IMG/VR virus record: IMGVR_UViG_3300045988_141150
DNA from: a virus
Reading direction: 5' to 3' (one strand)
Length of the DNA stretch: 64,000 nucleotides
Part shown: positions 60,966-61,684 of the stretch, in pieces
Layout of the letters: each line of letters begins with the position of its first letter
How positions within the stretch are numbered: the stretch's first letter is position 1
Position numbers and translations under genes: made by a program
Notes under the pieces: model-generated
What the model was told of the DNA's origin: nothing
What the model saw: only the letters and a program-made list of their open reading frames with translations
The model's database searches: none

Positions 60966-61684
60966 ATGAAGGTGATTAAAATTTTTATCGTAGGTATTTG
61001 CGACAATAGCGATTAGCAAAATGACTCATTGGAAGAAATAATAAATCAGTATTTTAAAGAATTTAATTTGCCGGGATATATATATATAAATTTACTGATC
61101 CTGGAAAATTAATTGATTCTAATATTGATTATGATGCAATCTTTTTAGGAATTACATTCAAAAACATGGATGGCATTGAAATAGCTCATCTTTTAAGAAC
61201 AAATGGGTATATTGGAAAAATAATTTTTGTTTCCTCCCAAATAAATTATGGAGTAGCTTCTTATGAAGTAAAGGCATTTAATTTCGTCAAAAAACCTGTT
61301 AATAAAGAAAAAATTTTTTCTATTTTACATGAAGTTAGAGAAGGAAAAAGACGTGAATATAAATATTTAGATACTCCTAACGGAGAAGTAAAAATTGATT
61401 TAAATAAAGTATTATATGCTGATATCCAAAAACGAAATTTATGTTGTCATTTAGAAAATGAGGTTCTAAATAGTAAAACTTTAAAAACTTCTTTTGAAAA
61501 TTATATAGGAACTTTAGTTTATCATCCAGATTTTGTCTTTATCCCACCAAGTTTAATTATTAATTTAAATCAAATTAAAATAATGAATAAAGACAATTTA
61601 ACTTTTAGAAATGGTGAAATTTTATACTTTCCTAAAAAAGGTTATGAAGAAATTAATCGACGATGGAAAAATCCATTTAGATAA
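60966..61684 (+). CDS. LytTR-family response regulator (AgrA/ComE-like), interrupted by a −1/+2 frame shift at a (TA)6 repeat; 1 in-frame TAG
   Basis: Receiver N-terminus (MKVIKIFIVGICDNSD…) in frame 0 ends at TAA 61110. The rest of the receiver (…DAIFLGITFKNMDGIEIAHLLR…IIFVSS…) and the LytTR domain (track ORF 61166..61684) are in frame 2. The junction is GGGATATATATATATAAA (61076-61088). Confidence 0.6.

Follow-up and report, generated by a model that had tools for sequence, protein, structure and literature searches.

Recurrent length variation of a TA tract in a predicted receiver-LytTR regulator gene of a TAG-recoded human-gut phage

The regulator gene, its two reading frames and its product

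The stretch of viral DNA analysed here (IMG/VR record IMGVR_UViG_3300045988_141150, 64,000 nucleotides, referred to as the window) contains a gene on the + strand (60966-61684) for a putative LytTR-type response regulator, the reading frame of which is broken by six uninterrupted TA units, (TA)6, at 61077-61088. The tract lies within GGGATATATATATATAAA (61073-61090), flanked by GAATTTAATTTGCCGGG on one side and AAATTTACTGATCC on the other. The 5' part of the gene (60966-61112, frame 0) extends from the ATG at 60966 to a TAA at 61110-61112 and consists of 48 codons, specifying MKVIKIFIVGICDNSD(Q)QNDSLEEIINQYFKEFNLPGYIYI and then the out-of-frame residues NLLILEN; its product is identical to the N-terminus of intact relatives and comprises beta1-alpha1-beta2 of a receiver domain (strand 7-12, helix 16-32 and strand 37-42 in an AlphaFold2 (AF2) model of an intact homologue). 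The remainder of the gene (61094-61684) lies in the frame of 60968, which stays open from shortly ahead of the tract until the TAA at 61682-61684 and has its earliest ATG at 61166, and it specifies beta3-alpha5 of the receiver and a LytTR domain (about 61358-61666).

With five TA units the two parts are in frame (ON), whereas with four, six or seven they are out of frame (OFF). Deletion of one unit from the window gives exactly an intact protein of 238 amino acids (aa), and the identical sequence is recorded in other assemblies. The tract is located early in the open reading frame (ORF), at codons 38-41, and (TA)6 occurs only once in the 64 kilobases (kb), against 0.10 occurrences expected (at least one occurrence in 8 of 100 shuffled sequences); tracts of five units, (TA)5, are located at 8457-8466 and 16437-16446. 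The preliminary description of this DNA was thus right that (TA)6 divides the gene between two frames, as the coordinates, the open frames and the TAA positions attest, and that loss of one unit would fuse the halves into an intact regulator, which it put at about 235 aa; its coordinates for the N-terminal frame also stand, but it passed without comment over an in-frame TAG at 61014-61016 (codon 17).

Comparison of sequences and of a structural model indicates that the restored protein is a regulator composed of a pseudo-receiver and a LytTR domain. Response_reg (PF00072) was matched at residues 55-122 with 35.2 bits (Pfam cut-off 30.2), and LytTR (PF04397) with 19.2 bits, which is below the cut-off of 22.6, in a match that spans positions 4-96 of the 98 in the profile. 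Two proteins that carry both PF04397 and PF00072 (P0014 and P0015) are homologous over the whole length (E = 1e-21), and an exhaustive search returned 7,424 homologues, of which the top-scoring are mostly about 240 aa long and match over their full length; members of the cluster are labelled 'LytR/AlgR family response regulator' by JGI. The AF2 model of an intact homologue (P0001, 95% identical; mean predicted local distance difference test score, pLDDT, 80.8) has the CheY-like (beta-alpha)5 fold, with target-normalised template modelling (TM) scores of 0.8-0.85 to the best receiver domains in Foldseek. The best Foldseek match was to full-length ComE (4cbv, E = 4.9e-12), and the second half of the model matches the LytTR domains of AgrA and Bacillus cereus with TM scores of 0.71-0.79 (AgrA 4g4k, TM 0.79, root-mean-square deviation 2.6; 3d6w, TM 0.71-0.73). 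Among phage proteins, there is a full-length match to phrog_8810 (E = 1.5e-24, positions 2-241 of 245), a PHROGs family without functional annotation, and a search of the proteins of deposited phages with the regulator gave matches only at 27% identity or less.

The regulator has the two-domain architecture and fold of AgrA, ComE and LytR, as had been proposed from the letters alone, and full-length homology to thousands of bacterial members, but it lacks both a phospho-acceptor and a linked kinase, two features that define the AgrA/ComE family of signalling proteins. The phospho-acceptor Asp is replaced by Gly61 (GGA, 61148-61150, + strand; AIFLGITF versus ..FLDI..), which aligns with the Asp of MrkE (DAIFLGITF versus DAIFLDINI) and with that of homologues from bacteria. 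The acidic pocket has degenerated to CDNSD; the beta5 Lys and beta4 Ser/Thr are kept (K109-P110 shows almost no variation, and IIFVSS is still present). In place of HRSY.VN, the core motif of the LytTR domain reads PPSLIINL, the protein is encoded by a phage and must be translated with UAG read as Gln, and no cognate histidine kinase or peptide gene is present among the genes of 57.8-64 kb, in agreement with the earlier remark that no such kinase is nearby. Because the phospho-acceptor Asp is replaced by Gly, the regulator most likely acts without phosphorylation; the companion suggestion, that it listens to an AgrC/ComD-like kinase of the host, is not supported. In a clade of 216-aa relatives, the phospho-acceptor column (alignment A1) holds Asp in P0009-P0011 and P0013 and Gly in P0004-P0008, a polymorphism that suggests recent or ongoing loss of phosphorylation dependence.

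The TAG at codon 17 (61014-61016, + strand) is present in all relatives that keep this part of the gene and is aligned with the Q of bacterial homologues (ICDNSKQ). An 8-kb alignment of the window with 14 relatives has 50 codon columns that contain TAG, in which 43 of the 67 alternatives to TAG are CAA or CAG, and within the regulator gene itself TAG stands in place of the window's CAG in three relatives (L010, L016 and L051). In-frame TAGs were found in evident genes such as those of ribonucleotide reductase (three), a RecJ-like protein (seven), an endolysin-like protein (nine), the neighbouring holin (one) and a fibre-like protein (four), and altogether in dozens of evident genes of the window (e.g., 22872-24245, 40578-42344, 51336-53621, and on the - strand 61732-62157 and 62174-63208); some long genes have none (e.g., DNA polymerase III alpha, 46743-50756, GyrB and GyrA). 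Because TAG exchanges with CAA and CAG, is carried by real genes and at codon 17 aligns with a bacterial Gln, the phage evidently decodes TAG as Gln (genetic code 15). Given this decoding, the codon-17 TAG is not a defect, and since it is in frame, the ON form can be produced only when UAG is decoded as Gln. Calling of ORFs with the standard code splits much of the window into fragments, and a standard-code annotation would misread the regulator gene twice, at the TAG and at the repeat.

Gut phages with TAG recoded by code 15 have been described (Borges et al., bioRxiv 10.1101/2021.08.26.457843; Peters et al., PMC9523058), including the phAss-1 group (PMC10607447). The present phage resembles them in the presence of in-frame TAG, exchanged with CAA or CAG, in many conserved genes, in its human-gut source, and in the size of the contigs related to it (109-198 kb). 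It differs in that there is no DNA similarity to deposited phages (57000-64000, near-identity search) and no suppressor tRNA (anticodon CUA) within the 64-kb window by ARAGORN or Rfam, the window being about one third of the genome. A tRNA cluster (165-238, 597-657, 1130-1206 and 4109-4185) corresponds to Gln(UUG), a Lys(UUU)-like tRNA, Met and Cys, respectively. The extra tRNA at 597-657, found by Rfam alone and with an acceptor stem unmatched by the model, was considered as a suppressor and ruled out, its anticodon being UUU and not CUA. A more distant clade, 48% identical at the protein level (L019-L022, contigs of about 200 kb), has an orthologue of the regulator in the same gene order (locus positions about 4938-5651), with an in-frame TAG just after beta1, at nearly the same place as that of the window. 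No ATG, GTG or TTG precedes this TAG in the clade; a strong Shine-Dalgarno sequence is followed by ATT, ATC or ATA codons, and gene callers begin at an ATG past the TAG, so that beta1 is lost.

Translation of the (TA)6 allele into a full-length product by a programmed -1 ribosomal frameshift at A_AAT_TTA (61088-61094, + strand) would yield a protein of 239 aa (..GYIYINLTDPGKL..), and the heptamer does have the form X_XXY_YYZ in the register of frame 0, with the frame-0 stop 16 nucleotides (nt) past it. This route is scarcely credible: the heptamer comes into register only through the extra TA, the protein is encoded in a single frame in relatives, and the (TA)4 and (TA)7 alleles described below would not be rescued. 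The heptamer was rejected as a programmed signal because there is no stimulatory structure downstream (z = -0.55; 55 of 200 shuffled sequences fold as well).

Tract length among related contigs

The first collections gave 24 related contigs in all, from 18 IMG/VR loci found by protein similarity, 16 IMG/VR matches to a DNA pattern of the tract flank (all among the set of those 18 contigs) and seven JGI/ENA metagenome contigs found by a similar DNA pattern of the flank. One contig (L018) lacks the tract region, and the other 23 of 24 carry GGATATGTATATAAA or a close variant; among these 23 IMG/VR and JGI contigs there is no uninterrupted tract of five or more units and no change of length. The relatives with the interrupted tract TATGTATAT, at 92-96% identity, number about 40 when counted by matches (39 matches to the DNA pattern plus L013, most contigs having been retrieved twice, or 24 contigs) and have no length variation at this place, and the window differs from them by a G>A change and two extra nucleotides. 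Together with the absence of the window's own 172-aa downstream ORF from an exact look-up, these observations would suit a private, irreversible inactivation, by which the gene had become a pseudogene in this single genome.

A scan of GTDB uncovered a contig of 163,874 bp (L051) that shares 98.5% identity with the window over 9 kb as well as the window's private amino-acid changes, with an uninterrupted (TA)5 that gives an in-frame GYIYKF. This contig (L051 / L144 = CAMELE010000001.1) is the closest full-length relative and was deposited as contig 1 of a metagenome-assembled genome (MAG) named 'uncultured Mollicutes bacterium', which is either a hint of the host or a case of a phage mis-binned into a bacterial MAG.

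Exact look-ups placed the intact (TA)5 protein of the L051 type on 138 contigs (indexed in 276 blocks), the protein of the window minus one TA on seven contigs, and a 172-aa downstream ORF on 12 contigs (17 when contigs were fetched); the 48-aa N-terminal product is absent from the sequence collection. Ten contigs with the 172-aa ORF, all from different Logan runs and called under code 15, were compared. Seven have (TA)6 (ERR12771148, SRR12907755, ERR9710445, ERR13899843, ERR13899844, ERR12394352 and SRR22402299, of which ERR13899843 and ERR13899844 are adjacent accessions), one has (TA)7 (ERR11457561), one has (TA)4 (ERR7439159), and one has (TA)5 with the start codon changed from ATG to CTG (L133). 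By contig counts, which are biased, the ratio of ON to OFF is very roughly 10:1, the sub-lineage being represented by some 170 contigs.

An initial conclusion that the frameshift was private to this genome was overturned by the (TA)5 of L051, the exact look-ups and the Logan contigs. With (TA)6 in at least seven other runs on different backgrounds, (TA)4 and (TA)7 in existence, and the repaired gene free of decay, a one-off pseudogene is very improbable. The in-frame variant that the preliminary description required does exist, on well over 100 contigs with (TA)5 giving GYIYKF, and the comparison of repeat length in related genomes that it advised gives four, five, six and seven units in the sub-lineage; its proposal of ON/OFF switching in the phage population is borne out in part, as a polymorphism of four to seven units across assemblies in the one sub-lineage that has an uninterrupted tract.

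An alignment was made of 22 sequences of the sub-lineage, about 2.5 kb each. Outside the tract, the window has no difference in 2,491 positions from a (TA)5 contig (L141, ERR414507), and it has 26 differing positions from a (TA)6 contig (L139). In a distance matrix and a neighbour-joining tree, OFF alleles are interspersed among ON alleles and are nearer to them than to one another, and parsimony requires at least nine changes of tract state. The tract is the sole site of recurrent insertion or deletion (indel) in the 22 sequences, an adjacent run of eight A (61684-61691) varying once.

An error of sequencing or assembly at the repeat, the true genome being (TA)5, would be in keeping with the reputation of short repeats as classic sites of indel errors and with the existence of a (TA)5 contig whose flanks are identical to those of the window. 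The idea of an assembly rich in indel errors was rejected, since within 8 kb the window has only one private indel of a length that is not a multiple of three, which is the tract itself. The same (TA)6 was also recovered in independent short-read assemblies from several studies, within contigs of 80-98 kb, and neighbouring homopolymers are stable; an error is thus extremely improbable. Given the identity to L141, the interspersed OFF alleles and the stable neighbouring sites, an artefact is unlikely, and only extreme recombination could reconcile the data with a single clonal OFF lineage. The tract evidently represents a real slippage-driven ON/OFF polymorphism and not an artefact of one assembly.

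Loss of the regulator and interpretation of the tract

Intact copies of the regulator are evidently under purifying selection, with a ratio of nonsynonymous to synonymous substitution rates (dN/dS) of 0.12 across the family and of 0.10-0.19 between the window's repaired gene and its relatives; the repaired gene shows no sign of decay. Null alleles are also found in lineages with the interrupted tract: a nonsense change of codon 156, CGA>TGA, in L047 and L050, the backgrounds of which are set apart by 33 differing sites, a 1-nt deletion of A in a run of six A (L046), a 1-nt deletion of T (L048), a 1-nt insertion of A (L049) and a 2-nt insertion of AA (L017 and L042). A 10-nt deletion was deduced from a predicted product (P0020), and further truncated products exist (P0179-P0190). 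Four different deletions fall in the region of 57.9-61.5 kb (57909-61529): 58036-60477, 58420-61026, 59909-61529 and 57909-61043 (L002, L012, L018 and L152). Three of these contigs (L012, L018 and L152) have lost the 5' end or most of the regulator gene along with upstream - strand genes, and L002 has lost upstream - strand genes only. In an unbiased set of 25 loci, there are two independent frameshift lineages for the regulator versus one across 12 neighbouring genes, a weakly powered comparison that is suggestive, not decisive, of more frequent frameshifting in the regulator than in its neighbours. Overall, purifying selection appears to act over the long term while null alleles, seemingly short-lived, arise often.

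Variants defective in agr recur in Staphylococcus aureus, and an agrA frameshift by slipped mispairing in an A-run was reportedly described in that species by Traber and Novick in 2006. The phage gene is similar in that, as in S. aureus, a LytTR regulator is kept over the long term yet repeatedly lost through nonsense mutations and frameshifts in simple runs; it differs in being carried by a phage and in having, in one lineage, a dedicated dinucleotide hot spot. In this sub-lineage, the tract is probably the dominant route of inactivation of a regulator that has been knocked out repeatedly across the phage group.

The window probably carries an OFF allele of a phage orphan transcription factor of the receiver-LytTR type, made by recurrent slippage at an indel hot spot, the TA tract. 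In the proposed sequence of events, a G>A (Val>Ile) change in the sub-lineage turned TATGTATATA into an uninterrupted (TA)5, at which slippage during replication adds or removes TA units; the (TA)6 of the window is the +1-unit product of (TA)5. Alleles with four, six or seven units are shifted out of frame and would leave a peptide of some 40-48 aa, the rest of the gene going untranslated. The ON protein would presumably be a constitutive dimeric DNA binder. Both ON and OFF genomes are present in public data, and the locus of this code-15 gut phage probably holds a LytTR regulator that is toggled by slippage and works without a kinase.

Several points weigh against this reading. Tract lengths were taken from assembled contigs, ten of which (L131-L140) were retrieved via the 172-aa product and are thus enriched for OFF alleles, and recombination could inflate the count of independent events on the tree. 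The tract is short (10-12 nt). Little variation is usual in dimeric repeats of about 9-10 bp (PMC3315296), and the spread of tract lengths therefore probably reflects in part that null alleles are selected for or tolerated, which may matter as much as the rate of slippage. It is also possible that OFF alleles weakly express a 172-aa product from the ATG at 61166, although no Shine-Dalgarno sequence lies ahead of it.

Repeat-driven ON/OFF switching is a textbook strategy of bacteria, exemplified by simple sequence repeat (SSR) contingency loci such as the repeat-controlled genes of Haemophilus and Neisseria and phase-variable mod genes; documented examples in phage-borne genes are, to our knowledge, scarce. 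The regulator gene resembles SSR contingency loci in that an uninterrupted short repeat lies within the gene, early in the ORF, where a change of one unit shifts the frame; in that in-frame and out-of-frame lengths (four, five, six and seven units) coexist among near-identical genomes; and in that the changes are recurrent (homoplasy), with at least nine changes of state on the neighbour-joining tree. As in phasevarions, the switched gene is a regulator. Unlike bacterial SSR contingency loci, this one is in a phage genome, has a tract of only four to seven units and is limited to one sub-lineage.

In another reading, selection would have kept the TA tract as a fast, reversible switch, which would be true phase variation at an evolved contingency locus and would let the phage population hedge between expression and silencing of a constitutively active regulator, together with the genes under its control. 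The four tract lengths on near-identical backgrounds with repeated transitions, the greater variability of the tract than of the adjacent run of eight A, and the position at codons 38-41 are all as such a locus would have them; in a protein without a phospho-acceptor, mutation could be the sole off-switch, and OFF alleles keep arising despite strong purifying selection on intact copies. Set against this are the occurrence of the uninterrupted tract in one sub-lineage only, relatives with TATGTATAT never varying there, and the shortness of five units in comparison with the dinucleotide switches on record. In other lineages the gene has gone through deletions and mutations that are irreversible, which fits plain recurrent loss of function. 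Selective maintenance of a switch is rather unlikely. Equally doubtful is a fuller version, in which the tract would reversibly switch both the phosphorylation-independent LytTR regulator and a deletion-prone accessory operon (58131-60758), with expression also gated by the decoding of UAG; if it were true, phage populations would hedge between two expression states by means of the TA tract.

Public metagenomes hold a natural experiment: in most samples this widespread human-gut phage has the regulator ON, and in a minority of them OFF, with four tract lengths in all, and other lineages inactivate the gene by other means. The polymorphism offers a handle on the function of a phage-encoded, kinase-independent LytTR regulator, and a locus at which read-level data could measure rates of slippage in phages.

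Control region and neighbouring genes

Two overlapping near-consensus promoters of the sigma-70 type are predicted upstream of the regulator gene (60863-60913, + strand; TTGACA-18-TACAAT and TTTACA-17-TATAAT), and the 48%-identity clade shares the -10 element of the second. The divergent control region (60813-60872, + strand) includes two exact copies of TGACACTTT (60817-60825 and 60864-60872, 47 bp apart), the first within a box, TACTNACACTTTTT, that is likewise conserved in the distant clade. Regulators of the AgrA/ComE type bind pairs of direct repeats ahead of the promoters that they control, and these TGACACTTT boxes may be considered candidate operator sites, as a lead only. Two of the three perfect copies in the window are in the control region, and the motif is not enriched across the window (19 matches versus 17.6 expected), so that no regulon can be deduced from it.

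A leftward promoter is predicted at 60802-60774, adjacent to the conserved box, and would drive a - strand operon (60758-58131) that diverges from the regulator gene. The likely targets of the ON protein would be within the 200-bp divergent control region, possibly the TGACACTTT boxes, together with the divergent operon, and OFF genomes would lose regulation of this accessory operon. A perfect 16-bp inverted repeat at 60741-60783 (ATATAATAATGAAAGG and CCTTTCATTATTATAT, 11 nt apart) overlaps the predicted leftward promoter and could be an operator or an RNA hairpin.

Downstream, the regulator gene ends at a bidirectional intrinsic terminator of 19 pairs (61687-61730), which it shares with the convergent holin gene; the preliminary description had correctly recognized this boundary, and also that the regulator is the sole + strand gene amid - strand genes. 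Its assignment of the surrounding genes to a - strand structural module is correct in part: a holin and a fibre-like protein are encoded downstream of the regulator, but the upstream genes are five of unknown function and one for a small metalloprotease. The 48%-identity clade has the same gene order at the locus.

The - strand genes of unknown function form a deletion-prone accessory island (57909-61529). At its edge is the gene of a 106-aa HExxH metalloprotease (57818-58138, - strand), which matches DUF2268 above the Pfam threshold and Peptidase_M78 (ImmA-like) just below it. One gene of the operon divergent from the regulator (58690-59115, - strand) has two in-frame TAGs and encodes a 140-aa Gly/Thr-rich protein with a full-length match to phrog_20016 (E = 4e-48, unknown function). 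Farther away, the DNA polymerase III alpha gene (46743-50756) encodes a protein closest to those of SPbeta/phi3T-like Bacillus phages, with 39% identity over 99% of its length.

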